A stretch of DNA of 63,756 nt, filler included, from Reclinomonas americana ATCC 50394 (GCA_048213135.1; 4 parts of 3 records of this genome joined end to end with filler, not necessarily neighbours in it), one strand, 5' to 3'. Positions 442 to 58,263 are shown, counted from the first letter of the whole stretch. Translations and numbers: made by a program. Notes: generated by a model from the sequence alone, not told the origin.

Positions 442-3400
442 GGCTTCAACGCATTCTATCCTCCCGTCGCCGGCGAGGCCACCGCCAAGTTTTACATCAA
501 GGTACGACGCATGCAAGTTTTGGGCGCGTTGCTGACACTTCTGTAGCTGACTGAATCCGCTGGCAGCTCTTCCAAATCGCGCTCTTTGAAAAGAACTGGA
601 CAAAAGAGGCAAAGCCTGTCAAGTACGGTGGCGCCACTTGTGCCCTTGGCAAGGAGCATTCACCGGATGTTGCGTTGATGTGCAGGGTCGCCGATGCAGC
701 GCCCAGCCGCTCACTATATTATATTCTGTGCAGGACATTATTGCCTCGGAGAAGGTGGCCAAGCAATTCGAGTTGCGCATCCCATTATGGTGTGAGGGTG
801 AAAATTGAGTTGCTAACTCGCGGCTGCTGTGACACACAGATTCACCATGCGTTTTTGCTACTGTTCAGTGCCGATTTCCAAGTCAATCTCTTTTATTCTT
901 TCTCCGTCGTCGCTCACAATCTGTTGTGTACCTGCAGTGGGCATCTTTTGTGTAAGTGGAACGGTTGGCATTGCGGGTGAGTGTTATACGTGACGGCTTG
1001 TTGTGTTCTATCGCCTGTCTCACATGTGTACGCTGCAGGATCTCTCACGGGCGCCGTCCTGTTGGCTCCATTTGAGTGCTCAAAGCCAGCGGTATGTGGG
1101 ACTCATTTCCACCCTTTTTCGTCCATTGGCGCACGCAGTCTCATCTCTGTCGATGCTCGCAGCTGACGGTGGGAGGCATGGTCACACCCAAGATGGTGGT
1201 GTTTGGCAAGATTGGAGTTGGACTGCCTAGTTTCGTGACACGAACTCCGTTGTTGTTTGTTGGTGTTTGTTAGCCGCTCACTCTTCATTTCAGTCATCAT
1301 GGGCGGAGTCGGCATTGCGGTGAGTTAGACGCGCCAGTTTGCATCGCCGGTGCACTTGACTCATAGCGTGTCGTTCTGCAACACACACAGGTCGAACTTA
1401 TCTCTGTTGACATTCCGGCCATTGTGCGCCCGCGCATCGACGATCATTATTGCATTCGGGTGCGCAGCGCACCGCCTTGCTCTGTTGTCGTAAATTTTCT
1501 TCTCACCGACACGCAACATTGGCGCAGGTGGACCTCATCATGCGCAAGTGCGTTACCGCGCTTCACCGACATGCCCCCCCCCCCCCCCATTTCATCTCAC
1601 ATTTCCATCTTTTCTCACTTGAACAGCGGTGACGGTCGCGTATTCTTGTGGTGGCGTGCATTTTGGGCGACGAGTGGACCATCGTACGCCATTCTCGGCT
1701 TTGCCGAGGACATGTCATTGGTGTCTGTCGAGCCGTCCAAGATTCACGTGCAGTTGCCGTCGACGCCGTACGCGCTCCCATCTATGCACGCTTTTGTTAC
1801 GGCTGCCTCGGCTCCGCTTCTTGCGCTCTCTTCATCGTCGTCGTCGTCGGCATCCCCCTCCTCTGCCCTCGTTCCGTGGGGCGATGCGAGCGGCCTGGTG
1901 TCGATGCTGGAGAGGGCGCGCGAGTTTGACGAGTTGACGTCGTTTGAGGGCACGGCGCTGGTGCAGGCGCAGTGGGGTGTATTCAAGGCGATTGGTAATG
2001 CGGTGAAGGGGGCGGTGAAGGGTGAGTGGGGGGACAAGGGGGAAGGGTGGAGGGACGGGAAGGGAAGGAGGAGGGGAAAGGGGAGGGGAAGGGAAGGAAG
2101 AGGGGAAAGGGGAGAGGAATGGATTGGAAAAGAGGGAGGAAGGGGGAAGGGGAGGGAAAGGGGATGAGTCGAGACGATGGGGCAGGGAGGGGAGAAGTGA
2201 ATGAGGTGGTAGTAGTGAGAGAGAGAGAGGGAGAGAGAGAGTGGAGAGGGAGGGAGAGGACGGAAAGGGAATCGGATTCAGAAGGAGAGAAGTGGAGANN
2301 NNNNNNNNNNNNNNNNNNNNNNNNNNNNNNNNNNNNNNNNNNNNNNNNNNNNNNNNNNNNNNNNNNNNNNNNNNNNNNNNNNNNNNNNNNNNNNNNNNNN
2401 NNNNNNNNNNNNNNNNNNNNNNNNNNNNNNNNNNNNNNNNNNNNNNNNNNNNNNNNNNNNNNNNNNNNNNNNNNNNNNNNNNNNNNNNNNNNNNNNNNNN
2501 NNNNNNNNNNNNNNNNNNNNNNNNNNNNNNNNNNNNNNNNNNNNNNNNNNNNNNNNNNNNNNNNNNNNNNNNNNNNNNNNNNNNNNNNNNNNNNNNNNNN
2601 NNNNNNNNNNNNNNNNNNNNNNNNNNNNNNNNNNNNNNNNNNNNNNNNNNNNNNNNNNNNNNNNNNNNNNNNNNNNNNNNNNNNNNNNNNNNNNNNNNNN
2701 NNNNNNNNNNNNNNNNNNNNNNNNNNNNNNNNNNNNNNNNNNNNNNNGTGGGGAAAGGAAGAGGAGCACGGGAAGAGTATATTCATTGATAAAGAGAGAA
2801 AGGAAGAAGATTAGAGATTGGAGACAAAGGAGGGAATGTAGAAGAAAGAAACTGATTGCAGGCAAGAATAGCGGAGAGTACGGGGAAATGCGCACGGTGG
2901 CGAGAGGAGGATAATGGAGAGAAGAAGAAAAAAGAAGAAGAAGAAGAAGAAGAGATTGCAGGGAAGGGGACGTTACGCGTGCGTGATTGAAGAGCATATT
3001 AGTGAGACGAGGCGAAAGAGCGGTGATCTATAGTGCACTAAAGAAGACATATTGATGCTGCGAGTGTCTTTTGTACGATGCTCATCGATCCTTGTCATCC
3101 CACAGCTGTGGGAGGCTTCGTGAAGGCCGCGGTGGCGGTCGTTGGTAAGATATTTTCCGCAATCACCTCATTCATCATGAAAGCACTATCAGCAGTTGCG
3201 TGGCCACTGGAGGCAAGGCTTCTCGCACATTCGCAGTGCTGATATTTGCAACACAGGTGTGGAGTGTGCTCGGAAAGATTCTCGATGCCCTGCTCAAGGG
3301 CTGGGGCGAGGTGAGCATAGTGCGGTGGGCTTCGTCGGCTGTGCTTTACCTCATTCCTGTTTGTCGCAGTACACAATGTTCACGTGGAAGGGCATAAAGA

Positions 3401-3533
3401 ACAAGTTTCGTGAGCCAAGTCTCCGGCACGCCACTGCAAGGTGAACATTTTGTTGAAGTGCATGTGGTTGTGTCAATGCAGGTGGAACTTGTTCAAGAAA
3501 GAGGGATTCCCGGGCGACTGCGCCGAGCAGTAA
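442..3533 (+). CDS. C-terminal part of an LLTP/vitellogenin-like secreted protein, paralog 1 (5'-truncated, about 15 exons)
   Basis: Spliced exons read GFNAFYPPVAGEATAKFYIK|LFQIALFEKNWTKEAKPVKYGGATCALGKEHSPD|...|VRPRIDDHYCIR|...DGRVFLWWRAFW...|WNLFKKEGFPGDCAEQ* (TAA 3531-3533). They are collinear exon by exon with 9674-12402. The family label is borrowed from paralog 2. Confidence 0.85.
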
Positions 3534-4034
3534 ACATAATGTTTAATATTTTGTGACGAGCTTTGAGAGACGAGTGTTGTCTGTCGAGATGATGCTGCCG
3601 TGATTGCAGCTGCTCAAGTGCTCGGTCGTATATGGAGTTATTGTCAATCATCATTCCAGCACCAGATAGAGTGATCAATATCTTTTTGTCTTCTCGGTTG
3701 GTGGCGCGAGTGTCGTTTCCTTCGCGTACGGCACAACGGCCGCTGCCATTAGCCCAGTTCCTCGATGGCACCCTCGACCTCTGTGTTGTCTGCTGCCAAG
3801 TTTGTGGTGGCCGTCCGCATCAACGCTGCTGCTACTGTTGCTGCCACCCGTCTTCTGGTACCGGTGGTCACTGCTGACGAAGTCTTCTTCCTGGCCTGGG
3901 CGGCTGTGTGTCCTGAATAGGGCTTTATTCTCAACATCGGCAACACACTTTAAACAGTTTTAGTTGTAGAAGGAAAGCACACGAGACTTGTTGGCGATCA
4001 CTGGTAGATGCTCATTGTTGTGTATGTCCCAGTG

Positions 4035-4194
4035 ACAACAACAAAACACTTCACTCACCACATTCCAATAATGCGACAAATGTCCACAAATCCCTTGCCG
4101 ACGATGACCATTGGCACACCAACAATATACAACACATAGATAAAGCTTCTCCAACAGTCATCTTCCCTTTCAGGAGACAAAGCCAATCAAACGC
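4035..4194 (-). repeat. Dispersed intergenic element, copy 1
   Basis: The reverse complement reads TTTGATTGGCTTTGTCTCCTGAAAGGGAAGATGACTGTT...ATGGTCATCGTCGGCAAGGGATTTGTGGACATTTGTCGCATT, matching 30928-31075 and 12487-12560. Confidence 0.85.
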
Positions 4195-4633: not shown

Positions 4634-7600
4634 ATGCGACGGAGAAGGCACTCCCTGTCTCGGTGTTCCTCACGAGCGACACTGATTGTGTGTGCACTGC
4701 TTGTGTTGTTGCCACTGGTGCTGGCACAAGTTGACTTTGCGGGGGAGCCAGAGTTGGAGGAGGTGTGTGTGTGTGTGAGAGAGAGGCAAAGGAGAAAGTG
4801 TTTTGTTTGAGTGTGCGTGTGTGACTTCTTTGTTGGTGTGTGTGGGATGCGTGTACGTGTGTGTGTTGGCGCTCGCATGCTGGCACTCTGACATTGTTGT
4901 ACACATTGACACATTGAAACTTCTCTTGCTTACTCTCACGCTCTCACGCTCTCACACATACACACATCCATGCAGTGATTCGCTCGCTCCCTCCCTCATT
5001 CCCTCACTCCCTCACTCCCTCACGCCTCACGCCCTCACTCACTCACTCATTTCCTTCACTCCCTCACTCCTTGCCTCCCTCACTCCCTCACTCCCTCACT
5101 CCCTCACTCCCTCACTCCCTCACCCCTCACCCCTCACTCCCTCCCCCACACATACACACACACAGAAGCACACTCTCAGCCGTTCACGGTCACTCTCCAT
5201 AATTTCCGTTCCTCCGTTCCTCTTCTCCCTCTCACTCTGCCTCACTCTGCACACTGCCCTCTGTCCTCTCCCTCTCCCTCTCCGTCCCTTTCCCCCTCTT
5301 CCCTCCGCCTGTCCCTCTCACCACCTTCTCCTTTACCCTCTCCCTCCCTCTCTCCCTTCCTCACCACTACAGCCCTGGCAACGAACCAGCAACTACCCCG
5401 TGCGAACCTCCCGCGCACTGTTGTGCCAACCCGGCTTCCGCTGTGTGGTTTGTCGGCCGCCCTCTCCCTTTTCTCTCTTCTCTCCTCCCTCTCTTCTCAA
5501 CCCCGTTTCCCCTCCCCACAGTACCGCGGTCAGCTGACCACCAGCGACCGCCCCGTAAATCACTCGGAGAAAAAGGAGAAGGCTGGCGATCCGTGCCTGC
5601 AGCAGCGTGTCGTCAACGCGGTGTGGACTGTCACGCATGAGCCGACTGGGGTGCGTGCTCTCTCGTGTGTTATTCCACTACCCTTGCGCCTCTCTCACTT
5701 CTTCCTCCCCAGTCCCGCTCTCACGTGCCTCCCGACGCCGACCTGTTCGCCATTCGCTTCATCCAAGCCTGGCAATTCGACAAGTGCAAGCTGTCGCCCG
5801 ATGTCAGCAAGCTGGTGACGGCGCAGTTGACGCAGTTCACGACGCACGTCATCCAGACGCATGTGAGTGTCGCCGACTGAATGGGGGATTTTCACCATCT
5901 CTCTCACCCCTCTCTCCCACGGCAGAGCGGCAAAGTCCTGCAAGTGTACGAACACATTCGCGAGTCGAGCAATGCCGCCACCATCAAGCGTTTGTTCATG
6001 AAGGCTCTCAACTCCAAAGTGCCCAAGGCAGACTCCACCGCGCCGCCGCCCGCTGGAGAGGCGCTGGTGTTCTTCGATGAGCACACGCACTCGGGACCGA
6101 TCATGGGAACGTTGCGTGACACGCGCACTTTCAATGGCGGTTCGTTTTGCCGACTCACCCGTGTCGCAGGTCCACCATCTTGCATACAACTCCCAACTCC
6201 ATTCTCTTTGAGGAGGCCATGGTTGCCGTGGAGAGCACTGCCACGGTGCAGTTGTCGCCGAGCGAGTGGGCATCGCGGCGACGTGCGAATCTCGTGGGCT
6301 TCATTCCGATCAAGCAGCGTCCGCGACTGCCCGACGTGAAGACCAAGATGCCCAACACGACATTCAGCACGAAAGTGCAGGCCACGTCGCAGGTCTTTGG
6401 TGTGGTGTTGACGATGGATGTGATGGGCTTCTCACTTTTTGTTGGTGTTAGGCTCGTGCCAAGACCCTGGTGAAGAACGGCATCACCACCGCCTCGCAGC
6501 ACAATGTCGGGGTGGAGTTCGGCGACTCGAATGCGGAAGGCACCGTGGGCAAGAAGCACGTGCCGCCGGTGAAGAAGGGCTCCCCGGCGCACAGTTTCGT
6601 CGCTGCTTATAAAAGAAGGTTGGCGCCTGCGACTGATGAATGTTCGCAGGTGGCAAGGAGGACAAGAATGTGGCGGATGGCATGACTGGTGATCAGGTTT
6701 GTGCGAGACTGTGACAAGAGGGGAGAGGTGGACGAGAATGAGTGAGAAGCACGGAGATTGATGATATTCTGAGTGAGCTGTGTGATGAGTTTCTGCTCCT
6801 CTTGCACTGTTCTTCACCGGAGAAAGCAAACATCGACATGCTGAGATGACGAGCCGATCAGAGAAGGGTTGGGAGAAGACCATGGTGCGAGATGATTCGC
6901 TCCTGCTTTTTGCTCTGGAGAATGAGCGAGACATCTCCTCCCTCCTGTTCTCTTCTCTCTCCCTTCCTCTCATCCCCTTTCCCTTTTCCCCCATTTTTAC
7001 CATTGCTTTCTTCTCCCTTTCCCTCACCTCCCCTTCCCTCACCTACCCCTTCCCTCACCTCGCCTTCCCCCTTCTCCCCCATCCACAGCCCAGCGGCATG
7101 TCATCCAAAAACGGCACCGTGGTCAAAGTCGCGCTCGTCACCAGCGTCCGTGTCCAACCTCGCACCGCGCCACCTACCGACTCCGCCGCAGCGGGCATGA
7201 TGTTTACAGAGGTGCCGACGGAGGAGCCACTGGCCTTTGTGAAGCACCCGGAGCACTATCGTGTGGATGTTGCGTTTGTTGAATCTCTGTCTTGTCTTCT
7301 GGCGCCGACACTCACCACTTGAATGACACAGAATTCTTTCTACGGCACCTTTTTCACTCCGCGCCAATCGCTGCAAATGAGCTTTCCCACGCACACTTTC
7401 GACACGGGCGAGAAGCTGATTCGCGGGTGAGTGATGTGTGTGCTTTTCCGGAAGACCCTAAGAGTGACTAAATTCTCCATTTTCTTCTGCAGTGCCTGCT
7501 CCGGTGCCGTGGAGCCAATGCTGCTGCAGCGAGAGCTCTCCAAGAGCACCATCAACGAGGAATTTGTGCATCACATGATGGCAGTCGTGCAGCAAGTGAT

Positions 7601-10600
7601 GGCCGATTGCCAGCCTTCTGCGTTGCAAGTGGTGCGGCGCGCAATCGATGCCATCCTTTCTCATTGCGTTTGCTGACGCCTCTCTGTCTGTCTGTCTCTC
7701 TGTCTCTCTGTCTCCCTCTCCCTCTCCCCCCTCTCTCTGTCTCTCTCTCAATCTCTCTCTCCCTCCCCCTCTCTTCCTTTTCGCAGATCCTGGCCTCTCT
7801 CAACACGTACAACATGCCAGCAACACAGCACTTCTTGCTGTCGCTGGCCGAATCGCATTCCGTGGACCATCCGACGCGCAACAGTGCACTCATTGGATTG
7901 GTGCACCCGCGAAACGGATACACTGACGGTCAGCTTGATTTGCACACTCACGACACGGTGACGCGACTTCACCAGTTGTGGAACGAGGACAGCGATGGGC
8001 AGGTGGGCGAAGACGGAAGGGACACGAGTCAACTCGCATGTCTTGCTCACTCTTTTGTTGTACCGCGCAGGCACTCCTGGTCCTCGCTGGTGTGCTCGGA
8101 TCGCTGAATGTTGTGCGCCCGGTCGAGGTGGAGGATCCGTACGAGCACATTGTGGCGGCCGTGGAGGAGGAGCTGCTGGAGGTGTTCCAAGCGGATGCTG
8201 ACCGGAGGAGTTTGAACCATGCGACCATGCTTCTACACACGCTCGGCAATGCGCAGTACTCGCGCTCACTACGTCATTTGCGGCATTTCGCCACTCGCCA
8301 CCGTGACCTGTCGGTGGCGCGCCTGGCGGTGGAGACCATGGCCGGCTTCGAGTCAGACGAGGGTACGCAGACGCTGGTGGAGGTGATGCGTGACGTGTAT
8401 GCCAAGCCGCAAGTTCGCTTGGCAGCAGCGGCAGCCCTGTCCAGCAAGTTTCGTTCACTGTTGCGACTTCAGTTAATGTTGGTTGGCTGCTTACCGACCT
8501 TGATTTGCGTGCAGGACTCTCTCGCCACGGCAATCGTCGGTCCTCAATGCATTTGTCGCTGCCAGCGTCTCTACCAGTGCGCGAAGCACGGAAGACAACG
8601 GGGGAGAAGGTACCAGTGCTGACGACACCAGTGATCAGGAGCGTCAGCAGCAAGAGGAGCGCAAGAATCGACCGCAGGAGCAAGAAGAGCAACAAAAGGA
8701 GGAGCAGCCGCAGAAGGAGGAGCCGCCAAAGGAGGAGCCGCAAAAGGAGGAGCCGAAAAAAGAAGAACAGCAGCAAGAGGACGACGACCCGGGCAAGGTC
8801 ACGCATGAGAGGACGTGGGAAAAGGTGCGTGTCGAGGAGATCGCCGGTGGCTGTGAGATCGTCGACTCACTTGCATTTTTTACAGATCTATGAGCAAACT
8901 CCAGGCTTTGGCAATGTTGCGTGTCGGTGGAGGGCGTAGTGATGTCGAAGAGAAAGGGAGACGGGCCGTCAGAAGCGCCTCTCATCTGACAGGGACAGTG
9001 GTTGACAGAAGGGACTCAATCTGAAAGAGATTGTGGTTGACAGAAAAGTCTCAACTATTTCCTCTTTCTCGAAGCGAATTGCTTTGCTGCAAGTATCAGT
9101 GCTCACACAACTCGCTCTCGCAGAGTTTTGTCGGTGGACGATTCGAGGCTGGTGCCGTTGCGTCATTACTTCTCTTTGCCAACATAAAGTTTGCCGCTAT
9201 CCTAATCTCCGCGTTCACATGTCGCAGATATTGCAACTCAAGGCCTAGTTCTGTCGCCGCAATGTTGCTTTTGGTGCTTTTCTCTCGATCCACTCACGTT
9301 TGCTTTGTTGTTCACAGCGAGAAGATGACTCTCGAAGCAAGTGAGTCTGTCTGCATTGTGGTTCACTCGCTCCTCTTCTTGCACTGACATTTGGTGACCA
9401 TTTTTGTGTTGCAGAGGGCGATGCTTATGCAAGGTGCGTGCAGATGCTTCTGTTGTAGGGAATTCATGTGCTTATGTGCACTAATTCGCTGTTCTGCTGG
9501 CAGATGCCCCGTGCACGTCTGGGTGCGTTGCATAGTGGTCATCGCGGTGTGTTGTTTATCACTCCTCACTCTGAATTTCCTGCAGAAACTCAAATTCAAG
9601 ATCTTCGAAGTGGTGAGTGCTCGTGACCGTGCACGTATGTTGGTGGTGTTCATGCTGCTAACTCGACTGAGCAGGGCTTCAATGCGCACTATCCTCCCGT
9701 GCACGGCGAGGCGCAGGCCAAGTTTTTCATCAAGGTTGGCGTGTGTGAGAAGGGGGAAAGACTTGGAGAGAGAGAGAGAGAGGAGACGGAGAGAAAGAAA
9801 GAAAGAGAGAGTGCGTGAGAGAGAGAGAGAGCACACTAAGGAACAGGAGATTTCCCTTGTCGAAGAATAAGAGGGCCTTCGAAAAAGACAGAATACGGAA
9901 CTATATGATTTCGTTCCGCCTCTCTCCCATTTGTTGTCGTACTATCCTCCTGCTTCCCGCGTCCTCACGCTCTTTTCCTAGTTGTTCGGCCTGTCACTCT
10001 TTGACAAGGAGTGGACGAAGGAGGCCAAGCCAATCAAATTCGGTGGTGCCACGTGCGCGCTGGGCAAGGAATACTCTCCCAATGTTGCGTTGTTGTATGC
10101 AGGAAGATGTGAGGTATGTGCTCACCTTTCCTTGTACAGGACGTCATTGCCTCGGAGAAGATCGCCAAGCAATTCGAGTTGCGTTCGAACAGGCGTATGT
10201 GACGGCTGTGGTTGTGCATCTCACAGATTCGTGTGTCACAGGTACACCATGCGCTTCTGCTACCGTTGTGTCAACATTTTCCTGTCTTCTGGTCGCACGG
10301 TGCTGCCACTGACGGTGATTGTGTGTTTTCGCAGTGGGCATCTTTTGTGTCAGCGGCACTGTCGGGTTTGCCGGTGAGTGGCGAATAGGGAGGGCATAGG
10401 AAGAGAGGGAAGTGACAGGGAAAGTTGGGAGGCGAGGAAATGCGTGTAAAGCGAGATGGTGATTGACGTAGAAGATTTTTGGGTGACGAGAGGAAGGGAG
10501 GAGGATGAGTAGAATGGGATGCAGGAAGATGAAATGAGGGGAGGCAGGGTGAGAAAACGAGAAGTGGAGGGACGCAGGTTCACGCGCAGAGCAAGAATGA

Positions 10601-12402
10601 GAGGAAGAAGAAGAGAGAAATAGATGCAGAAGAGGAAAGAGGAAGGGAGAAGAATGAGGAGGAGAGGAAAGGAAGAAGAGAATGAAGAGAAGGGATGTAG
10701 AAGACGATATGTTGGAAGGGGGAGCATGAAGAGAAGGTGATGTGAGAAGAGGAAATGAGGGGAGGCAGAGAGAAAACGAGAAGTGGAAAGAAGGAGGAAG
10801 AAGCACAGAGCAAGAGTGAGAGAGAAAGAAGAGGAGGAGAGGAAGGGAGGAGGAAGACGAGGAGAAGGGGGTGTATGAGGATGAGGAGAGACCAACAATG
10901 CACAGCCGCTGTCGTCGTCACTTGTTCAGCAGTAGAGTGTGTGATGCCCTTGCACTGATTTCCATTGTGTGAACTCGCAGGTTCGCTGACTGGCTCCGTG
11001 TTGCTGGCGCCCTTTGAGTGCTCCAAGCCAGCGGTAAGTAAATTCAGTTCCGTCCATGTCTTCCTTTGCTCGTCTCATATTGCCATGTTGTGCAGATGAC
11101 GGTGGGTGGCATGGTCTCGCCAAAGATTGTCGTGTTTGCCAAGATTGGAGTGGGTCTGCCAAGTTGCGTCGTGTCGCCTTCCCGCTCATCCGTTTTGTGT
11201 CCCCACTGCTTAAACAACCTCTGCACTCTCATGTGAACCCACAGTCATCATGGGTGGCGTCGGCATTGCGGTGCGTCGTTGTGAATCGAGTGATCGCTAA
11301 CTGCCACTCTCTGACCAGTGTGTATGTGCAGGTCGAAATCGTGTCAATTGACATTCCGCTGGTGGTGCGACCGCGCATCGACGATCACTACTGCATTCGG
11401 GTGTGTTGCCGCCGCTGCTGCATTTGTCACTCTGCAACTCTGTACTGACTCGCCTCTCTCTCGCTCAGGCCGATCTCATTATGCGCAAGTGCGTATTCCC
11501 CTTGCATCTCGTCTCTCCCTCCCACTCGCTAACAGTGTCGTGTCAATAATGGCAGTGGTGACGGCAAGGTGTTCCTGTGGTGGCGTGCATTCTGGGCGCG
11601 CGGAGGACCGTCGTATGCCATTCTCGGCTTTGCCGAAGACATGATGGTGTTTATCGGCGACGCGGGACCACTCGGCACCTCCAAGATCAGCCAACTCGCG
11701 CTGCCGTCGCCGCGCCCGCCCCTCCATGCGTTCCTGGCCTCGGCGATTGGCCCAGCCATGTCGTCGTCATCGACGGCAATCGCTGTGGTGACACCAAAAG
11801 TCGGTGGCGTGGTGGCGCAGCTCGAGTCGGCGCGGGACGCCGATGCTGTGGTCCCGTTTGAGGACTCGACGCTCCAGCTGGCCGAGTGGGGCTTCTTCAG
11901 ACGACTGGTCAGGTCGATTGGAAACTTCTTCAAGAAGGTGGCAAATGCCATTGTGAAGGCCGTGAAGGGTGAGTCAGAGTGGGAAAGGAGGGGGGAGAAG
12001 GCACGGCAGGAGGGTGTTCGCTGACGCGCTGCGTACGTAATGCAGCCGTCGTCAACTTCGTCGTGAAGATCGCTGTTGCCATTGGCAAGGCGTTTATCGC
12101 GCTGGGCAAGCTGATTGTCAAGGCCCTTATCGCTGTTGCGTGGGCGCGGAACGGCACTGGTGGAAGTGAGGCGCTTCTCGCTCACTCGTTTCTCGCAGGT
12201 GTGGAAGGTACTCGGCGACATCCTCGATGCGCTGCTCAAGGGCTGGGGCGAGTATACGATGTTCAAGTGGGCCGGTGTGAAGAATAAGTTGCGTGCGCAC
12301 GCAATGGCAGTGACGGGAGGTGGTGCACTCATGTGACTGGTGCGGCGCAGGTGGAACTTGTTTAAGAAGGAGGCGTTCCCGGGTGACTGTGCAGAGGTGT
12401 GA
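4634..12402 (+). CDS. Large secreted protein with a vitellogenin/large-lipid-transfer-protein-like helical domain, paralog 2 (about 35 exons)
   Basis: Signal peptide (LIVCALLVLLPLVLA-Q) from ATG 4634. The region 8071-8447 (LLHTLGNAQYSRSLRHLRHF...ARLAVETMAGF...LVEVMRDVYAKPQVRLAAAAAL) resembles the LLTP alpha-helical repeats. An acidic Q/E/K linker follows, then a beta-rich C-terminal region ending FPGDCAEV* (TGA 12400-12402). The coding call is solid; the family call is by motif recognition only. Confidence 0.75.
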
Positions 12403-12486
12403 GAGAGTGTAATGAAGTAATCGAATTGCAAGCAAAAGGAGAAGGGAGGGAGACGAGGGAGAGGAAGGGATAGGTGGGAGAAACAA

Positions 12487-16105: not shown

Positions 16106-16137
<32 letters not shown>

Positions 16138-34769: not shown

Positions 34770-34828
<59 letters not shown>

Positions 34829-42235: not shown

Positions 42236-43246
42236 GGCTGCTTGCCTCTCTATCTCCCTCGTCGCACAGACGCACGCACTCTCTCTCTCTCTCGTTCTCA
42301 CTTCCTCTCTCTCTCTCTCTGCCCCACGCTCTCTCTCTCTCTCTTTCCCTCTCTATTCTCCCACACTCATCCCCTTCTCTCCTCTCTCGCACAGGGCCAC
42401 GTCGGCCCCGCTCAAGCGCACCGCCAACAAGACCGGGTTTGGCGAGCTCGCTGCCGCTGTGCGTCGTTCGCCAGTGCCGCGCAAAGCCGCCCACCCGCCA
42501 TCCATGCAGCCGTCGACGCCGAGAAAGACCGTAATGTTGCGTTGTGATTGTCCTCATGAGCAAATGTGTGCTTCTGTGTAAGCTCACTTCGCGCCTCACC
42601 AGACCGTCGTCGATCAAGACCGTCGCTTCATCCACCGATAGCGACGCACCGCTGCGCAAGAGTAGCCTCAAGAAGACCAGGCAAGTCCTGCCGCCATGTT
42701 TTTCTTCTGTTGCATTCTTATTCGTTACTGACTCTCTCTCTCTCTCTCTTCTTCGCTTTTGTCTTTTCTTCTTCTCGCTTCTCCTCTCTTCCCCTTCTTA
42801 TCTGTTCTCTTGTCTTCACTTGGCTTCTCTTGTCATCACCTCTCTATCTCTCTCACACATCCCATCTTATCTTCACTCTCTCCTCTCGTCTCTTCCTCTC
42901 TCCCTTGTTCTTCTCTCTCCTCTTCTCGCCCCTTGTCTGTTCTTCTCTGTCCTGTTCTCATCTCATCTCTTCTCCTCTCTTCCTCTCTCCCTTGTTCTCT
43001 TCTCTTCCTCCCTTCTCCTTCTCCTCCCTTCTCCTTCTCCCCTCTCCTCTCCTCCCTTCTCCCTTCTCCTCTCTTCTCCTTCCCCTTCACCCGCACAGCC
43101 GCAAGGGATCGAGCTCCGTACGCTGGAACACCACCTCCGAGGTGGTCCTGTTTACGAATCTGTCTGCGCCCGACGCCCCCGCACAGATGGAGTTGTGGCC
43201 ACTGAACGATGCGGTCTTGTCGCTCCCGGCCGAGCCAGAGAGATGA
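39296..43246 (+). CDS. Low-complexity protein with an N-acylation signal (MGCSAS) and candidate PP1-docking motifs; includes inverted block 40648-41116
   Basis: ATG 39296 reads MGCSASTP. The frame is continuous once 40648-41116 is flipped. The C-terminus LRKSSLKKTS|RKGSSSVRWNTTSEVVLF is reached via a GC-AG intron at 42681-43098. The exon joins around 41900-42395 are unresolved. Confidence 0.6.
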
Positions 43247-43342
43247 TCGAACTTCTTTGTTGTGACGACAATGGACAGAGAGACATCGCTCATGTTATAT
43301 ATGTTCTTTTTAGTCTTCATTAGTCGTTTGTAGGAAAATGTT

Positions 43343-46300: not shown

Positions 46301-47245
46301 GCGGAGGAGGAGGCCGCCTGCACCGACGGCGTCATCGTCAGCGGGTCGCTCATGGTACTACAGGTCGACATGGAGGCGGAGCTGAAAGAGCCCAGTGTGT
46401 CGGACCGCGCGATTGCGCTGGCACTGGCGCTGACTACGGTGGCGTTGACAGACTCCATGTCGACGAGGCTAGAGGCGGAAAGTGAAGCCGACGCCTCGGC
46501 ACAGGCGTGCACTGCGGCTCCAAGAGAATTCGAACTGTCTTGCCGGATTCTCTGGTTGCTGGCCGATCGTCGGCGACCTCCCTTGGCTCGGGAGGCTGAC
46601 GATCGCGAGTGTCTGCGTGCACGAGGGGTTAAGAAGCAGAGAGAGAGAGAGGGCAAGCGCTGTGTGGCCCCTACACACTCACCCGGCTTCGGGCGTGGTG
46701 GTGTCACTCGTTCGCGGGAGCAAATCCGGTGGCGGCAGCGAGGCGAGAATCCCAATGGTGACCATGGCCAGCAGCAGGCACCACACAACGTACGCCGCAG
46801 GGACGTAGAAAAACGCGTGAATGGCGAGGCTGGCACTGAGCAGCGGGAGCGCCATGGCGGAGAGGACTCTGTGGCAACTGATGAGCACCGATCCGAACAC
46901 AAAGGAACGGACAAACCAAATGAGGAGAGGCAACTCACCGCGTGATCTTGCACTGGGGGAGCAACTCAGTGGCGGGTTGAAGCATGGCGGCGGCCACCAC
47001 CGATGATTGCGATGCCGCCCTGTCCTCCATGATCCGCGGCTGTGCTTGTTGACGCTCTGGTGTGGCACGTGATGTTCGGCGCAGTCAGTTTTTTGATCAG
47101 TGAGAGAGTGGTCTCCGCGCGTCAAGAGTGTGTGAAAGATCAGTGTGAGCGTGTGTGTGTTTTTTGTGCGATCGAGGTTGCCGTATGAAGAAGAAAGGGA
47201 GAAACTTGTTTGCGCAACAAAGTTGCCTCGACAGGAATCATGCAT
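43343..47245 (-). CDS. Membrane-bound hybrid histidine kinase (TM segments, HisKA, HATPase_c, receiver); start uncertain
   Basis: H-box LAHMSHELRNPLFGI, N-box RLRQVLLNLLSNALK|FT, G1 VEDS|GRGI, F-box VFIPFRQ, G2 YQGTGIG|L and SKLGKGTTIGF. Receiver LVEDNA|MIR...PDLILTDEHM...LIKPV. Confidence 0.93.
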
Positions 47246-48032: not shown

Positions 48033-50899
48033 TCACCGATCGGGGAACCGGTGCATGAACTGCTTGGCGTGCTGCAGTGTGTCCACACGATGCACGAGGA
48101 TGCTGTCGTCCGTCACCGACTCCTCGTACATGTGACCGGGGGCCTCGTGGAAGCGCAGATCGGGCACGAAACGCACAGGGATGTTGTTGGTCACCAGTTG
48201 GAACGGCAGCGTGCAGTCATCGTGCCCGGTGCGCTCCTCAAAGGGCACCGACAGTGCGGCCAGCCACTCCACCAGATCCCACGAGAGGAAGAGGCCCCAC
48301 CCCAGCACGTACTCGTACACCACGTGATGTCGCAGCGCCGTCCCATGTGCGCCCCACAACAGTCGCTGTGAAGGCAGCTCGGCCAGCGCACGCTCCATGG
48401 CGACGGTGCGCAGGAAAATGTCGGGATCGCACTTGGCCACCACCCGAATGGTGGAGCCGCGATAGTGCGTGGCGACCGCCGCAAACCAGTCAAAAATCTT
48501 GCCCGAGTTCACGTTCTCCCGCGTGTCCAAAAAGAGCAGACTGGCTCCGTCGTGCACCTCGTATTCCTCATGCAGTGCTCTCGCCTGCGCGCGTGTCACC
48601 GGCCGACCCAGCACGTACACGATTTGCACGGTGCCGCGAGGATTCTCCGTGGGGTGATACACGTTGGGGTAGCGCGCCCACGTCACGCGAATGCGATTGC
48701 GATCGGCGACTCGGTCGGCCACCGAGAACACACCGAGCAGAGTGCGCACGTGGGTGCCGGCTGCCGGTGGCGGATGCTGGCGGATAAAGTCGACGACTTG
48801 ATCGCGCGTGAGCAACTCGTCGGCGGTGGCCTGCACTCGCGCATCACGCTGCATGTCCAGACCGGGTGGACACGGCACGGCGTAGAAGCGTGGCAGTGAA
48901 AAGCGCGTGGCGTACTTGCGCCACGGAAAGGGGCCGGGTGGTGGTACGGCAGCTGTGTGCTCGGGTGCCAAATGCGCAGGCAGTGGTGGGGGAAGGCCGC
49001 CGCCCGCCGGTGGGTCCATCTGCCGTGAGAAGTGAGGGATGAAGGGGAGAGGGGGCGTGGAGACGGGGAGTCAACGCAACCCAAAAGAATGATGAGATCA
49101 ACTGCAGGGAGGGGGAAGGTGAGGAGAAAGAGAGAGAGGGATAGAGTGTGGAGAGAGACACACAGACCTCGGAGTGCTGATGAACCCACGCGGAAGCCGC
49201 CTGAAAGTACCTCTCGCGCTCCGGCTCCAGAGACCACCAGTCAAGGAGAGCGCGTGGTGAGACGTCCTCTGCTCACAATCAATGTCAGACGGGGGAGAAT
49301 ATGGGAAAGGAGGGAGAATAGGGGATTGAAGGGGAAAAGGGGGAGGGAGGAGGGAAGGGAGGGAAGGGGGTAAGAGGGAAGAGAGGCAGGGGGAGAGGGG
49401 AGGAGGGAGGTGGGAACGAGGGGAGGAGGGGAGGAGAGGTGGAGAGAAGGAGTGAGAAGGGAGAGGGAGGGAAGGAGGAGGGGAGGAGGGAAGGAAGGAG
49501 GGGAAAGAAGGGAGGGGAAGGAAGCAAGACAAAAGCGAAAAAGGGAACAACAGAAGGAGGGGTGACAATGGGATAAGAGTGAGAGAAAGAAAGGAAGGTA
49601 GAAGATGAATAGTTTGCTGTGTGAGAGGAAAAGCAGCCAGAGATAGACAGTCGGAGAGAGAGAGACTGAGAGGAAGAGGGGAAGAAGAAAGAAGAGAGTG
49701 AGAGAATGAAGGAAGACAACAACAGTGTGCGAACGAGATAACAGACAACGAGAACAGATAGAAACAGAGAGAGAATGCGAGAGATAGAAGGGAAGAGGTA
49801 ATGCGAGCGGATGGAAAATGTGGTTACGCAACTCAATTCCCGCACATGCACATCGCCCGGTCGCGCCATGAGCGGCACCAGTCCCTGATTGCTTGCCGCC
49901 GACTCATCGTCCTCGGCTGCGGGAAACCCCAGCAGCAGTCCCTTGCGAAGATACTCGGTGTCTCTGTCGCCCTCCGCCATGGACAACTGCGCAAGGAGGA
50001 GAAGATCAGCGCAAAGTGCATGGGAAGAACGGAAAGACAAAAGAGGCTGCACCTCTGGCACGCCCTCGACAAGCTGGTCGACAATGGCGCGGGCAATGGC
50101 GCGAGTGAATGAGAGTGGAATGCCGAGTTTCATGGCGAAGCGGACCGCTGGGCAACAAAGGGAAGCAAAGGGGGAAGGGGTGGGAAGGGGAAGGATGAGG
50201 AGAAGCGAGGGGGATGGGAGGCAGAATCGCAGGCAAGCTGAGCACCATGCGATCCCAGACAGAGAATGCGTGCAAGCGAGGATGGAGGGGAAAAGAGGGA
50301 GGGAATGAGGAGAGTGAGACTAACTGGAGAGAATACACAATGAGAGTGAACGCGGAAAGAATGAGAGACAAAAGGCAAACAAAGAACCACAAAAATGAGA
50401 GTTGAGATGCAGTGAGTGTGAGACAGAGAGAAGAGGAGAGAGAGAGAGACTGGAGGAGGGAGGGACTACAGAGATAATAAATGAAGAAGATTGACTTGAG
50501 AGAACGCACAGAGAGAGAGAGAGAGCGCGCGTTAAGGTGACGCCTAAAGACGCCTAAGGCGGCATGTACTGAGAGAATGCATGCATGCAACGTGTGTGTG
50601 TGTGTGTGAGAGTTGCAGTTTCTTATGTGTGTGTCTCTCTCTCTTTCCTCTCCACCCACTCACCCACAGCATTCGCATCAAAACCATCCTCTCGCACCGA
50701 CACACTATACACTTTGCCACCTGCAAAGAGCGACACAGCGCGTGTCTTTACTGCAGATTCCTGTGAGTGAGAGAGACAGAGTGAGAGACTGAGACACACA
50801 CTCAAAGGAGAGAGAAGAGCATTGACTCACTGTGGAACATGCGCCTGTGCAGATGAGACAGAGCAGCAGCACAAAAAGCAGCGATACTGCTCTCGACAT
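48033..50899 (-). CDS. GT31 (beta-1,3-galactosyltransferase-like) glycosyltransferase, copy A
   Basis: Hydrophobic N-terminus from ATG 50899 and four short exons. The large last exon contains LLGVFS...RNRIRVTW, ENVNSGKIFDWF, the DxD motif VAKCDPDIFL, LSWDLVEWL and GHDD. Confidence 0.85.
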
Positions 50900-50949
50900 T
50901 GAGAGAATATTCAAATCTCTTCTCTCTCATTGCAATTTCGTTGTTTTTT

Positions 50950-53674
50950 TTACAGCTCCTCCAAGGCGCGCACCAGCTCCTCCAACTCCATCGGTTCTCC
51001 CAGTGCACTCGCCTGCAGTCCATCAGTGAAGCGCTCCATCAGCTGCTGCGCGTGCTCCAGCGTGTCGACGCGGTGCACGAGAATGCTCTCGTCGGTCAGC
51101 GGTTCCTCGTACGTGTGGCCCTCGGCCTCGTGGAAGCGATAGTCGGGCACGAAGCGCAGTGGGATGTTGTTGGAGGCGAACCAGAAGGGCAGTGTGCAGT
51201 CGTCGTGTCCGCTGCGCTCGTCGAGTGGGGTGGTGGCCTGCGCCAGCCACTCGACGAGATCCCACGAGAGGAAGAGGCCCCAGCCGAGCACGTACTCGTA
51301 GACCATGTCGTTGCGCACGGCCGTGCCGTGGCCGCCCCACAGCAGGCGCCGTGAGGGCAGCTCGGCCAGGGCACGCTCCAGGGCTACAGTGCGCAGGAAA
51401 ATGTCGGGATCGCACTTGGCCACCACGCGAATGTTGGAGCCGCGGTACTGCTCGGCCACCGCTGCGAACCAATCAAAGATCTTGCCCGAGTTCACATTCT
51501 CGACAATGTCGAGGAAGAACAGGCTGCTGCCGGCGTACGTCTCGTACTCGTCGTGAAGGGCGCGGGCCGTCGACTGCGACATTGGCCGTGCCATCACAAA
51601 CACGATTTGCACAGTGCCGCGGGGATTCTCCGTCGGGTGGTACACGTTGGAGTAGCGCGCCCATGTCGCGCGAATCGTCGCTCGGCGCACCGTGTCGCTG
51701 GCCACTGAAAACACGCCAAGCAGCACGTGCACGTTGGGGCCGGCGGCGGGTGGCGGGTGTTGGCGCAGGAAGTCGAGTTGCGCATCGCGAAAGAGCGCGT
51801 CCTCCATTGGCACCGTCTCGCGCTTGTTCTTCCAGATGGCCACGTCGGAGATGCACGGCACCACGTAGTGGTGCGACAGCGAGTAATACGGCGCGTGCAG
51901 TCGCCACGGATGCCAGCCGGCCAGGCCAGCGGGGTCGGCGGGGTCCGGTTGCGTGGGGGGCGGTGGATTCGGGGCCACGCGCGCCAGGTGGGGCGGGAGG
52001 GGTGGGACGGGGGAGCCGGGCGGGTCGTTCTGGGAAAGGGGGGTGAGAGGGAAGGGAGGGAGGGCGGGTGGGTGGATGGATTGAGGACAAACCCAGAAGA
52101 AGCTGGAAATGATCTGGTGGTGGGGAAGGGATGAGTGTGGGAGAAGGTGTGGGTGGGAAGGAATGGAAGGGAAGCTCACCTCCGGCTGGTTGTGCACCTT
52201 CTCCGATCCCAAATCAAAGTAGATCATGTGATTGGCGTTGAGGGTCCACCAGGCTGACAGGTTGCGAGGGGGGGCGCCGGCTGCGGGAAGGGGGGAGGGG
52301 AATGAGGAAAGGGGACAAATGGGGAAGGGAGATGAGGAAGGGAAAGGGAGAAGGAAAGAAGGTTATGGAAGAGGAAAGAAAAAGAGAGATGTGGAAACGA
52401 GACGGAGGTGAGAGAGCAAGACGGAAAACGAGGACAGGCCCTTGATCATTGACATTCAACGCATGGGAGCAGCGCAACGAACGAAGAGGATGGAGACGAT
52501 TGAGATGGCGAGAGATGGCGAGCACAGACAGGCGATGCATGCAAAGCAATGAGGCCATTGAGATGAATGAGACTGAGAGACACAAGATAGGGAGAGAGAG
52601 AGCTGTGGAGGAGGAGAGCACAACAGATGACGATCGCAGGGACGGAGACATGCAAAGGAGAGCGAATATAGGTATGTCGGGGAATAGAAAAAACAGCCAA
52701 GCGTTCAACGTGGAGACGCATGAAGGAAGAGAACGAGAGGCAGAGAGAAAGAGTGAGACATCAGAGAGACAAAAGTGCAGAAGATTTGAAGTGGCGAGAA
52801 GAGAGCTAACATCCTCTTCTGTATCTGCCTTCTCTCTAATTCGCAACATAATCTCCGCATATCCATGTACCCGGGTCGCGCAATCAGCGGAACACCATTC
52901 GGCTCCTCCGGCACACGCACAATGAGCAGATAGCCCTTGGTGAGGTATTCGGTGTCGGCCAAATCGGGATCGGGTTCAGCAGGTGGCTGGGGTGGAGACG
53001 GGAGGGTGAGCGAAAAGTGGAGAAGTTAGGAGAGAGAGAGAGGAGGGATGCAAACCTCGGGAACATTCTCAGCCAGCTGGTCGACAATGGCGCGAGTGAT
53101 GGCGCGCTCAAACTCGAGAGAGATCTCCATGCGAGTGGCGAAGTCGTGGGCTGCGCGAGAAGAGGGGAAGTGAGGAAATGGATGCGGAATGAGGAAAGGC
53201 AAAGCGAGGGGAGAGGAAGAGAGCAGAACAGGGGGAAAGGGGAGAATGAAGAGGACAGCAGAGGATGAGAAGAATGAAGAGCGAGAGGCGACAGAGGACA
53301 GAGAAAGAAAGAGCTGCCAGTGACAACAAGAAGAGAAGCAGCAAAAGCAAGAGGAAGAGGCCCGGAAGACTGGGAGGAAAGATAAGACTTGCTTGTGCCA
53401 GTGACATGAGGACGCGGAAAGATGTGGAACAGAAAGGAGGAAGAGGAAGACACGCAATAGAGAAGGAGAAGAGCGAAAGAGGTGATAAGAGTGAGACGTA
53501 GTGGCCGTGAGTAAGAGGAGCAAGCAGTTTATGAGAGGCGAGAGGCAGAGAGAGGCAGAGAGAGGCAGTGAAGAAGAGAATGCACACCTCTCTCTTCCCC
53601 TCTCTCCCCTTCCCTCCAAGCAGTGAGAGATATGACAGAGGGAGAGGAAGAACAGAATGCAAACCTCTCTCTCG

Positions 53675-53711
<37 letters not shown>

Positions 53712-54668: not shown

Positions 54669-56317
54669 CTACATAATTTGCCTCTCGCCCTTCATCCCCT
54701 CCTGATCACCCTCATCCTGCTCCGGTCTCGCCGCGTGAACCTCGGCATCCACCACCGCTGCATGCTCCTCCAGCTCATCGACAAACCTCTCCTGCACATG
54801 CACCACCGGCTGCTGCTGCTCCTCCCCTTGCTTCTTCGTCTCCGCCGGTTGCAGCTTGCGCACAAACAACGTGTCGACATCGGTTACCTCCGCCGCCTCC
54901 TCGTCCTCGTCGGCCTCGTCCACTTCGTCGGCGTGGGCCAGCAGCGACGAGTTCGGCGTCCCGGCGGCAGCGGGCTTGTACACCAGAGTCGGTCGGCTGC
55001 GCACGGTCTCCAACCGCGGCGCCGCCTGCTCCTGCGCCTGATACCGCTCGCGCAAATGCTCATGCGTCTCATCTCGATGATGGTGGCGATGGTGCTCGCG
55101 CTGGTGATGATGATGATGATGATGGTCGTGGCCGTCTGCTGGAGCCGCCGACTGGTGGAAGCCGGCAAACGAGTCAAAGGCGCTGTGGCGCTCGGTGACC
55201 ACAACGGTACCCGCTCGCTGCGCTCCCTGCAGACTGCTGCGCCGTCGCTTGAGAAAGTGGCTCATGTTGGCCGGCGACATGGCCTCGTAGCACGCCAGAT
55301 GTTCGTCCATGAACGGGTGCACGCGTTTTGAGCGAGATCTGCGAGGCCATGAAGATTAAACGCCGAGCAGAAGTCGGATGGCCGAAAAAGAACGCAACGC
55401 TCGACAGGCCATCGACACCGCCACCTCCACGGCCAAGTGGCTGTTGAATCGCTCGTCCAGAGCGCACTCCAAGAACGGCGCCATGAGCGCGTCGGCAAAA
55501 TCCTATTCACAAGATGATTCAGGAATGGCAGAGGACCATCTCCCAAGAGAACACGCACAAACCATGCCCTCTTCCACAGACACGGCACGCGCTTGTTCGC
55601 CTTCGTCACGGACAACGTCGAGCTTGTTTCCAATGACCACGTACCGTCCACCAGCGCCACCAAGCAGGAGATCGAGGTCGGTGGCGATCTGTAAGCATCA
55701 CACGACCATGTCAGGACCAGAGACAGACTCAACCCACAATGATCACCGCGCACCTTGTCGACAATGGCAAACGAGTGGCGATTGGTGATGCTGTACATCA
55801 ACACAAAGGCCATGTCGGGGCGGAAAGTGATGGTATTGGCACGCAGGCGCGCCTGCAGATAGTCGCTGTACGAGGCCGTGTCCAACCTTGTCGGCGTCCC
55901 CCACCACTCAGCAAACTCTCAATGGCAGTCAACTCTACTCCAGCAAACACACACACGCACCAATCCACCGACAGATCCATGTTGTGTGTGTTGAGATAGC
56001 CCTCCTACACATCGGGTCAGAGAGACCACGCGTTCAGATTCGAGCATCGCAAAAAAAACTCAACTCGGTAGGCGATCGGCTCCAGCTTGTCGATCGTCGA
56101 CATGGTACCACTGGTGACCAGCATGCCCGACATGCGCTGCGCCACCACCCACACAAGATCAGCACAGTTGTCTTGAAATGAAGAAAAAATACAATCACAA
56201 AAATCAAAGACTCACCGCAAACTCTCGAGTCAGTGCGCTCTTGCCGACATTGCGCTCGCCCAGAACGACCACTGTGACGGTCGGCTGCTCGGAGCAGCAC
56301 GACGTGAGAGAACCCAT
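54669..56317 (-). CDS. Atypical Ras-superfamily small GTPase with an N-terminal acylation motif and a long C-terminal tail
   Basis: MGSLTSCC start, G1 GERNVGKS, G3-like WLDTAS, AFVLMYSITNRHSF, G4 IGNKLD and APFLEC. Intron 55398-55339 joins ORF 54669-55322 in frame. The 3' end may extend to 54403. Confidence 0.8.
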
Positions 56318-56455
56318 GGCGTGTGTGCTCAACACGCGCACAGCAATCACAACAAAAAAGATTCTTCGGTCAGGCACCCGGAGAAACCCCACGCGTGGCG
56401 AAAGGAGAAATTCAATCTATTGAGATAAAGGGAGCGAGAGAAAGAGAGAGAGAGA

Positions 56456-57904
56456 CTATGGGTTATTGTTGTTGTTGTTTTTGTTGTCGTTGCTGTTATC
56501 CTGATCCTTGCCGGTGCCGTCGGCAGGAGGTTGTGGCGGCGCATCCGGCACCTCAATGGCCGTGTCGGAGCCGACACCACCGGGACCGGGACCGTTGGGC
56601 CCGTACCGAATGAGGTGCACGTAGTCCCACATCTCCAGTCGCTTCTTGGGAATGTCTTCCCATTTGGGGGCGAACGACGGCAGCAGTCCGCGCGCCTCCA
56701 GCCACTTGTAGATGTGCTGGCGCCACACCGTGTGCAACTCCTGCACGCGGTGCGTGTCCTCGATGGGGTAGCGCGTCGGTACGTTGCCGGCGTGGTTGTG
56801 AATGCGAATGCCGCGGTGCGACACGGCTGCCTCGAACACGGCGTAGGTGCTGCCAAGGGAGAGAAGGGAGTAAGAAGAGAGAAGGGAGTAAGAGGGAGTA
56901 AGAGAAAAGGGAGTAAGAGAAAGGGAGTAAGAGCAAGAAAGGGAGTAAGAGGGAAGGGAGTACGAGAGGGAAGGGAGTAAGAGAGAAGGGAGTAAGAGAA
57001 AAGGGAGTAAGAGGGAAGGGAGTAAGAGAGAAGGGAGTAAGAGAAGGGAGTAAGAGAAAAGGGAGTAAGGGAGAAGAGAGTAAGAGAGAGAAGAGAGTAA
57101 GAGAAAAGGGAGTGAGAGAGAAGGGAGCAAGAGAGAGAAGGGAGTAAGAGAAAAGGGAGTAAGACAGAAGAGAAGGGAGTAAGAGAGAAGGAATCTTAAT
57201 CATCTGACTTCAGTATCGCGGCAGGTTTCTGTCTTCTTGTCCCTCGCGAAAGAGAGGACACGAGGATGCGGGAAGTCCACAGAAAGCACAAGAAACACCA
57301 ACTTCTGCGCTTTTCTCTCTTCCTCTCACACACTCTTTCGTTCTCACTGTCTTGTCCCGCCTCTATTTGTGTTCATTTTCTGAGCTGTCCTCCCCGCATT
57401 CTCCTCGACCTCCCCTGGAGTGAGAGAGAAAGAAAGAAGAGAAATGAGTGAAAGAAATAGAGGACAAGATGCTACAGAGACAACATGAAGAGATAAACGC
57501 AAAGAGAGGCGAGCGACAGCCAGTTGGAGCGAGAGAACCGAAGAGAGATATCTTTCTCTCCCTCGCACTTCTTTGAGTCCATTTTGTGCTTGTTCTCTCT
57601 GTAGACTTCTCGTCCTCTTTTACAATCACGCACATCTCTCTCCCTCTCTCGTTCTCACTGTCTGTGTTGCCAATCTTCGTGTTCATCGTCATCTCGTACT
57701 CTGTTAGACTTCCAGTTTAGCTTTCCCGTCACTCATCTCTCAGCGCTTCTCTCTCGCTCTTTCTCTCGTTCCGCCTTCATGTCTCTCACTCCGCACTCAT
57801 CTTTCTCCTGTCTCTTGCCCCTCTTTGCGAACATCCTCTTCACGACCTCATTGTGAGCTTCTCACATTCTCCTCGTCGTCTTTCCTGTCGCCATCTCCCT
57901 CCCG

Positions 57905-57937
<33 letters not shown>

Positions 57938-58263
57938 ACTCTCTCTCACACACTCTCTCTCCCGCTCACTGTCATTCTCCCTGTTGTATCGCCTCTCTTT
58001 TTTCGTTCATCTTCTGAGTATCCCCTCTCGCATTCTCCTTGTCATCCTCCGCCCTCCCTTCCCCCATCTCTCGCAACTCAAAGATCCACGGATCGCAATG
58101 GCCGTGCAAATAATGCACCGGGTAGTACACCATGTCGAACACCTCCAGATGCGTACGATGCGTGAGGTGGAACGTCGGGTAGCCGCTGCCGGAGGAGCTG
58201 GAGAAGGCGACCACGCCGAAATTCTTGAAGACGCGATTGTCGAGCAGCTCCTGAATGGCCAGT
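56456..58263 (-). CDS. Last two exons of a probable GT-A/GT2-like glycosyltransferase (5' part lost in a gap)
   Basis: NFGVVAF...YPTFHLTHRTHLEVFDMVYYP...HCDPWIF(D)|TYAVFEAA...NHAGNVPTRY resembles the protist GT2-like HRTH..F....P......D.W...Y pattern. Confidence 0.6.
56860..57190. repeat. Intronic minisatellite (GAGAAGGGAGTAA-like)n
   Basis: Tandem array read directly from the sequence. Confidence 0.85.

Follow-up and report, generated by a model that had tools for sequence, protein, structure and literature searches.

A second class of 5' splice sites, displaced by one base and tied to the last exon base, in nuclear DNA of Reclinomonas americana

Genes and introns of the window

The window analyzed here, i.e., the whole stretch of 63,756 nucleotides (filler included) from Reclinomonas americana ATCC 50394 (GCA_048213135.1; four parts of three records joined end to end, not necessarily neighbors in the genome), is nuclear eukaryotic DNA with a G+C content of ~47-60% over most of its length, falling toward the end, in which the genes are densely packed and interrupted by many short introns. 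Here, we report that the 5' splice sites (donors) of these introns fall into two classes, one with GTGAGT or GTGCGT (class C) and one with GTTGCGT (class S), and that the choice between them is tied to the last base of the exon. Pfam searches on single open frames detected ELO, protein kinase, HisKA/HATPase, PH, NHL, PAN, and Galactosyl_T pieces. Gene B (5522..12402, plus strand), with HEAT and weak Vitellogenin_N similarity, reads through 1168 codons without a stop across 32 introns (13 class S, 18 class C, and 1 other). Gene A (442..3533, plus strand) is a tandem paralog of gene B, represented by its 3' part, and the exon lengths agree: 60, 102, 38, 23, 39, 53, 67, 26, 69, and 20 nt are identical in gene A and the 3' part of B, whereas the intron lengths differ. 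Both genes had been called LLTP-like in a preliminary description of this DNA, a label that proves weak: Vitellogenin_N scores 20.6 bits, under the cut-off of 24, next to a HEAT_2 match, the nearest ESM Atlas clusters are HEAT-repeat proteins (family-level leads), and a family search with the C-terminal half common to A and B gave no match. On the minus strand, a histidine kinase gene (43343..47030) contains 11 introns, namely nine of class C (all after G), one of class S, and one ambiguous, and a tandem pair of GalT-like paralogs, 67% identical over the last exon, occupies 48033-53150.

Introns were predicted with a purpose-built dynamic-programming exon/intron parser, whose score combines codon usage and intron length with a model of branch point and acceptor; all junctions are thereby inferred from DNA. 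In its initial version any GT was allowed as a donor, and 301 introns were predicted on both strands, 119 of which combined a good 3' signal with a length between 44 and 110 nt. In this subset, with no donor model used, GTTGCGT was the most frequent donor heptamer (13), followed by GTGAGTG (8). Unsupervised expectation-maximization on the same 119 donors gave GT-G-[A/C/T]-G-T (weight 0.40), GT-T-G-[C/A]-G-T (0.22), and noise (0.38), and this three-part mixture improved the log-likelihood from -1068 to -993. The mixture was then added as a donor score restricted to +3 to +9 of the intron, so that the choice of donor could not be biased by the last exon base (position -1). A donor is assigned to class C if it has G at +5, to class S if it has T at +3, no G at +5, and G at +6, and is ambiguous if it reads GTTNGG.

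The curated set comprises 15 gene models that preserve an open reading frame (ORF), with 99 introns and the strand chosen by Pfam matches or long ORFs; single-exon and wrong-strand models were excluded, and 34734-35880, with a gap and weak signals, was beyond what the parser could resolve. Seven donors or acceptors were corrected by hand on evidence independent of the -1-base rule, replacing parser calls at 3405, 6402, 9741, 44888, 52895, 55558, and 55733. The corrections were made by paralogy (3405, 9735, and 52847), by protein motifs (the NALK-F-T junction of the histidine kinase and the NKLD frame of the Ras-like gene), and by branch site, acceptor, and intron length (6393). Donor 35522, in an NHL repeat, was added by hand, and donor 49080 on the minus strand was first revealed by paralog alignment, after which the retrained parser found it by itself. 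Not included in the 99 were 3906 (past a stop codon), 50830 (after a 14-nt first exon), 55954 (ambiguous with a G/GTGCGT six bases upstream; here and below a slash within a motif marks the junction), and 22018 (acceptor not fixed).

Two donor classes and the last exon base

It is confirmed that this organism uses a second donor class, GTTGCGT, displaced by one base, in about one third of its introns. The two classes of the preliminary description are recovered as 60 class-C donors (GTGAGT, GTGCGT) and 35 class-S donors among the 99 curated introns, with two ambiguous and two other donors; GTTGCG occurs in 26 of the 35 class-S sites and the full GTTGCGT in 21, and the conserved G and T of this class do lie one base further in, at +6/+7. 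After an exon ending in G (n = 59) we found 55 class C, 1 class S, 1 ambiguous, and 2 other donors, whereas after an exon ending in A, C, or T (n = 40) there were 5 class C, 34 class S (exon end A 14, C 8, and T 12), 1 ambiguous, and no other (Fisher p = 2.7e-19 for class against G/non-G end). The tie is one-directional, as had been proposed, with five non-G ends keeping GTGAGT or GTGCGT, and the claim that the displaced form is dominant rather than rare likewise holds. An approximate earlier tally for genes A and B, 19 shifted donors at 24 non-G ends versus 0 at 24 G ends, stands in its pattern and in the count of 19, with the denominators now being 23 and 22. The observation is stronger than that tally suggested.

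The same tie is seen in less supervised parses. In the uncurated parse (98 introns) class C follows G 51 times and non-G 13 times, and class S once and 29 times, respectively (p = 4e-13); in a donor-blind parse of the same gene spans (124 introns, 79 of them sharing a curated donor) the corresponding numbers are 48 and 17 for class C and 0 and 27 for class S (p = 5e-12). We rejected an artefact of base composition, since decoy GTs inside exons lack any tie to the preceding base (C-like, 57 after G and 266 after non-G; S-like, 4 and 22; p = 1.0). GTTGCGT is also 3.5-fold in excess over both strands of the window, with 29 copies against 8.18 +/- 2.68 expected (100 shuffles, largest 16), and the bases preceding these 29 copies, taken with no gene model, are A7 C8 G2 T12.

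Class-S donors are spread over many of the genes. In gene A (plus strand) they are located at 669..675 (GTTGCGT, exon end T), 772..778 (GTTGCGC, A), 863..869 (GTTCAGT, T), 1230..1236 (GTTTCGT, A), 3195..3201 (GTTGCGT, A), and 3405..3411 (GTTTCGT, A; intron 3405-3481, acceptor placed by paralogy with 12288). The paralogous donors in gene B are, in the same order, 10084..10090 (GTTGCGT, T), 10178..10184 (GTTGCGT, A), 10265..10271 (GTTGTGT, C), 11163..11169 (GTTGCGT, A), 12135..12141 (GTTGCGT, T), and 12288..12294 (GTTGCGT, A). Gene B further carries 6111..6117 (GTTGCGT, C), 6594..6600 (GTTTCGT, A), 7269..7275 (GTTGCGT, T), 8448..8454 (GTTTCGT, A), 8916..8922 (GTTGCGT, T), 9157..9163 (GTTGCGT, C), and 9248..9254 (GTTCTGT, A). 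Still on the plus strand, the ELO gene has 14331..14337 (GTTGCGT, T) and 14503..14509 (GTTGCGT, C, opening a 659-nt intron); the kinase gene has 21415..21421 (GTTGCGT, C) and a probable donor at 22018..22024 (GTTGAGT, A); the NHL-repeat gene has 32953..32959 (GTTGAGT, C), 34519..34525 (GTTGCGT, T), and, in an NHL repeat, 35522..35528 (GTTGCGC, A; junction YVSE/AVNHTIRQI). Two more plus-strand sites are 37756..37762 (GTTGCGT, C) and 42536..42542 (GTTGCGT, T; 563-nt intron, acceptor less certain).

On the minus strand, class S is found at 28463..28469 in the PH-domain gene (GTTGCGT, T), at 44932..44938 in the histidine kinase gene (GTTGCGC, T), at 49074..49080 (GTTGCGT, G), 49826..49832 (GTTGCGT, A; 564-nt intron), and the paralogous 52841..52847 (GTTGCGA, T; 567-nt intron) in the GalT-like genes, at 55392..55398 (GTTGCGT, C) and 56058..56064 (GTTGAGT, A) in the Ras-like gene, and at 58071..58077 (GTTGCGA, A; long repeat-filled intron, acceptor less certain). 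The sole class-S donor after G, i.e., G/GTTGCGT at 49080, is fixed by a 21-nt exon common to both GalT-like paralogs. For all 31 sites that had been listed before, the motif is present where it was placed, and 30 of them are donors in the curated set; the remaining one, 22018, fits the kinase frame by its context and is uncounted. Five class-S donors are new: 9157, 9248, 37756, 28469 (minus), and 49080 (minus). As an observation apart, the donors GTTTGGT at 36719 (plus) and 45862 (minus) have G at both +5 and +6 and fit either class; one follows G and the other T.

At the 34 class-S donors after non-G ends, +3 is T in every case, and +5 is C in 30 of the 35 class-S donors, whereas the equivalent +4 of class C is mostly A (A 35/60, C 14/60; p = 2.6e-9), so the description of class S as the same motif with an extra T does not hold. 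When aligned on GCGT, the classes differ at a single position, G-G-T-G-M-G-T versus G-T-T-G-C-G-T. Where genes A and B have an intron at the same position (13 cases), the donor class agrees in all 13, though the intron interiors have diverged to chance; therefore, it is selection rather than common intron descent that maintains the motif. We also considered mobile-intron (introner-like) copies and rejected them, the interiors of 81 short introns being no more alike than shuffled controls (mean longest common substring 4.70 for S-S pairs versus 4.62 shuffled; paralogous introns behave likewise).

The junctions are fixed by the reading frames, by protein motifs that are conserved, and by equal exon lengths in tandem paralogs. 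Fourteen of the 15 gene models have no internal stop, and the fifteenth (A3) is open to its stop codon; retaining introns singly breaks the ORF in 84 of 96 cases, and in 29 of 32 for class-S introns only. The second GT of GTTGCGT was rejected as the true donor, since moving the cut there loses the frame in 24 of 28. Sliding the borders by one base (TT...GN) leaves the mRNA length unchanged, so the frame alone cannot discriminate here. The slid borders, however, turn the conserved F of NALKFT into C, and at the paralogous donors 863 and 10265 they give W versus R, whereas GT-AG borders give Leu in both (split codons TTG and CTG). The conserved motifs earlier invoked at class-S junctions are indeed found there, namely KF/AIK at 21415, HLF-M-Y at 14331 (where the intron splits the Met codon), and NALK-F-T at 44938, which we take to be kinase, ELO, and histidine-kinase motifs, respectively.

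Could the pattern as a whole be an artefact of misplaced junctions (another GT or a one-base slide), of mobile-intron copies, or of chance? Every junction is computational and the parser needed hand correction at several places, which would leave room for it, but gene B stays open through its 32 introns, the alternative GTs break frames, the slid borders destroy the F of NALKFT and the shared Leu, the interiors are unrelated, the heptamer is in clear excess, and the decoys show no tie. We regard such an artefact as extremely improbable. From this one window and its predicted junctions, class S would appear to be a rule-like feature of this genome.

The introns of both classes are of the ordinary U2 type and belong to a single spliceosome. 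GT-AG borders are present throughout the curated set of 99; a CTNAY branch motif, at a median of 17-18 nt before the AG, is common to both classes, position -3 of the acceptor is C in 56 of 60 class-C and 33 of 35 class-S introns, and the median intron length is 68 nt for class C and 66 nt for class S. U12-type introns have the donor consensus [AG]TATCCTT and the branch site TCCTTAAC. This intron type was rejected for class S: none of the 35 donors resembles the consensus, and the branch motif is CTNAY as in class C.

Recognition of the displaced donors

The reading that we favor, at a little short of even confidence, is that both classes are read in one seven-base frame by the small nuclear RNA (snRNA) or snRNAs that recognize the 5' splice site, and that for class S the register of this recognition lies one base downstream of the cut. 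An exon ending in G would present G/GUG(A/C)GU, and after an exon end of A, C, or U the G would come from the intron itself, as /GUUGCGU; the common frame would then be G-(G/U)-U-G-(A/C)-G-U. In class S, G+1 of the intron would take the place of the exon G-1, U+3 that of U+2, and G+6/U+7 that of G+5/U+6, with the cut being fixed later, at the first GU. Pairing in the shifted register may thus be the cause of class S. The invariable T at +3 would be accounted for because the shift needs a U to pair at the place of the usual U+2; a bulge at +3 would not need it. Counted on the consensus, canonical U1 makes five base pairs in the shifted register and three in the normal one; the nearest-neighbor energies of class S are close to zero whichever register is used. 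Of the earlier proposal of an alternative register, the two classes, the displacement, the tie, and the dominance all stand; a plain shift or bulge against the same U1 is complicated by the pairing energy and by the C at +5.

Several points weigh against our favored reading. The mean duplex energy with the canonical U1 5' end (ViennaRNA) is -8.9 kcal/mol for class C with G at -1 and -5.4 for class C without it, and merely -1.0 for class S, for which the predicted optimum pairs G+1 with C9 in 4 of 35 donors only. A human shifted example, in contrast, is listed at -6.5 kcal/mol with six consecutive pairs (PMC4856993), whereas GUUGCGU with the same U1 reaches about -1. By pair count, H/GUGCGU in its normal register ought to do at least as well as a shifted H/GUUGCGU; therefore pairing alone leaves the prevalence of class S at non-G ends unexplained. 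The C preferred at +5 and the A preferred at the equivalent +4 of class C face the same U1 base. Finally, the evidence comes from one 64-kb window with junctions read from the DNA.

A bulged register would also displace the downstream consensus, and the preliminary description had named a bulge of the +2/+3 U. U1 (and U6) would pair with G+1/U+2 normally, one U would bulge out, and G+4 to U+7 would pair like +3 to +6. The likeness to the human bulge +2/+3 sites (Roca et al. 2012, cited in PMC4856993) is that GU is followed by one U more and the consensus beyond it lies one base on, and the extra base is here always a U beside a U, as is typical of the validated sites. However, nothing in the bulge model calls for an exclusive tie to non-G ends, whereas the tie here is nearly absolute: the exon G-1 should still help, so class S should be at least as common after G, yet only one of the 35 class-S donors follows one. 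Besides, H/GUGCGU would always be better than H/GU(U)GCGU, which class S nevertheless displaces at most non-G ends, and the energies are as poor as for the shift. A bulge is least able to explain the tie, and we consider it quite improbable.

Because of the weak energy with canonical U1 and the preference for C at +5, the heptamer GUUGCGU looks like a target in its own right, which might be read by a U1 altered at its 5' end or by another, U1-like RNA, or might be selected when U5 and U6 act. If a variant snRNA, as the preliminary description had also suggested, or a second U1-like snRNA (or an altered U1 5' end) complementary to GUUGCGU read class S, with canonical U1 reading class C, then the near-zero canonical duplex energy, the C at +5, which canonical U1 pairing does not explain, and the higher information content of class S relative to class C (GTTGCG in 26/35, GTTGCGT in 21/35) would follow. 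We nevertheless find it unlikely: such a partner alone leaves the near-absence of class S after an exon-end G unexplained, the U1 5' end is among the most conserved of eukaryotic RNA sequences, and there is no snRNA gene within the window. A search of the window for RNA genes returned no snRNA at gathering score; its 28 matches at E<=1, all far below gathering, belong to 25 microRNA-precursor and three small nucleolar RNA models and include no U1, U2, U4, U5, or U6.

Selection at a later step is another candidate, which we rate as more unlikely still. Without an exon G-1, the U5 loop 1 and Prp8 would hold the 5' exon weakly, and GUUGCGU would compensate in the tri-snRNP (the U4/U6.U5 small nuclear ribonucleoprotein), U1 having no special part; for example, G+6/U+7 might be paired by the U6 ACAGA box, with U6 in a +1 register. 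In favor of this, the base to which class S is tied is the last of the exon, a base in contact with U5 and not with U1 alone (PMC8283771), and a U6 register displaced by one base, in the opposite direction, has been shown for STAT3 (PMC11162779). The exon following a class-S intron starts with G in 16 of 35 cases versus 14 of 60 after class C (p = 0.04), a weak and unexplained difference that would also point to a later step. By inspection, however, the match of GUUGCGU to ACAGAGA does not obviously extend beyond G+6/U+7, and the cut is normally fixed five bases from the U6-paired G (PMC11162779).

The kind of feature is known, i.e., non-canonical 5' splice-site registers; what is new is its rule-like form as a feature of a genome. 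U1 pairing in a +1 shifted register with the cut unchanged occurs at human sites (Roca and Krainer 2009, described in Tan et al. 2016, PMC4856993), where the validated non-canonical registers are estimated to account, all told, for ~1.5% of 5' splice sites. Our class S resembles the human shifted sites in having the conserved G at +6 rather than +5 and the cut at GU, and its pairs would likewise be displaced by one; unlike those sites, which are a handful, it makes up 35 of 99 donors with a strict heptamer of its own. The accepted view, with which a recognizer in one fixed register agrees, is that U1 marks the region and U5 and U6 fix the cut (PMC11162779), and in the STAT3 exon 21 downstream donor described there the distance from the cut to the G/U pairing U6 C42/A41 is likewise not the usual five. 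STAT3, however, provides one human donor only, with its G at +4 (register -1), whereas here the G is at +6, which would be register +1, in one third of the introns. The AG//GU and //GURAG donor classes (bioRxiv 10.1101/2022.04.05.487178) also trade exon-side for intron-side strength, but both halves remain in one register, whereas here the intron half moves by one base and the +4-equivalent A becomes C. PMC10599564 has no treatment of registers.

The full-text literature searched, which consisted of primers, studies of human registers, and broad surveys, yielded no report of a GUUGCGU-type donor class or of a rule on the exon-end base. In C. elegans unc-73(e936), a cryptic "-1" /GUU donor reportedly arises from the former exon-end G, with the consensus staying in the old register; that is a cryptic site of a mutant, whereas here a genome-wide class is kept by selection. 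Most of what is known about the placement of the cut relative to snRNA pairing comes from mutants and a few sites in human, and an organism in which natural /GUUGCGU donors number in the hundreds or thousands, each matched by a G/GUGMGU counterpart, would be a test bed for cut placement. For intron evolution, the usual requirement for an exon-end G would be lifted, and in practice about one intron in three will be misplaced here by a gene finder that relies on one donor matrix. It is possible, though we lean against it, that one third of the introns are read by a dedicated partner, either a second U1-like snRNA for GUUGCGU or a U6/5' splice-site helix routinely six rather than five bases from the cut. 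If so, introns could follow any exon base, and throughout this genome the register of recognition would be naturally uncoupled from the site of cleavage.

Further observations in the window

The best relative of the GalT-like paralogs is 37% identical (HMMER, 1.84 billion representative proteins), and the four best matches have neither an accession nor an informative name (one is a "hypothetical protein"); judged from this identity, the lineage seems poorly sampled. Word-based protein searches with one gene B exon and one GalT-like exon returned no match, and the only locus returned by one metagenome scan (L001) is 29% identical, too distant for intron comparison.

Gene B contains five micro-exons in succession, of 20, 23, 19, 19, and 27 nt (9228-9674, plus strand), flanked by introns of 62-74 nt. 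Gene A has a 59-nt class-C intron at 3311-3369 (cgag/GTGAGCATA...CAG/tac) that is missing from its tandem paralog, the coding sequence of gene B being uninterrupted at the corresponding 12222-12245; therefore, an intron was gained or lost after the duplication.

Long introns (150-1200 nt) are a minority and are filled with purine-rich or GT microsatellites (13690-14258, 10374-10980, 22018 onward, and 58077 downward). Three N runs (assembly gaps at 2299-2747, 13008-13083, and 34830-35226) lie inside such repeat-filled stretches, and some long introns are therefore only partly assembled. The 659-nt ELO intron (14503-15161, plus strand) consists in part of several tandem copies of a ~115-nt unit, each ending with a branch-site-like GCTGAC and CAAG or CAG, which could serve as alternative acceptors.

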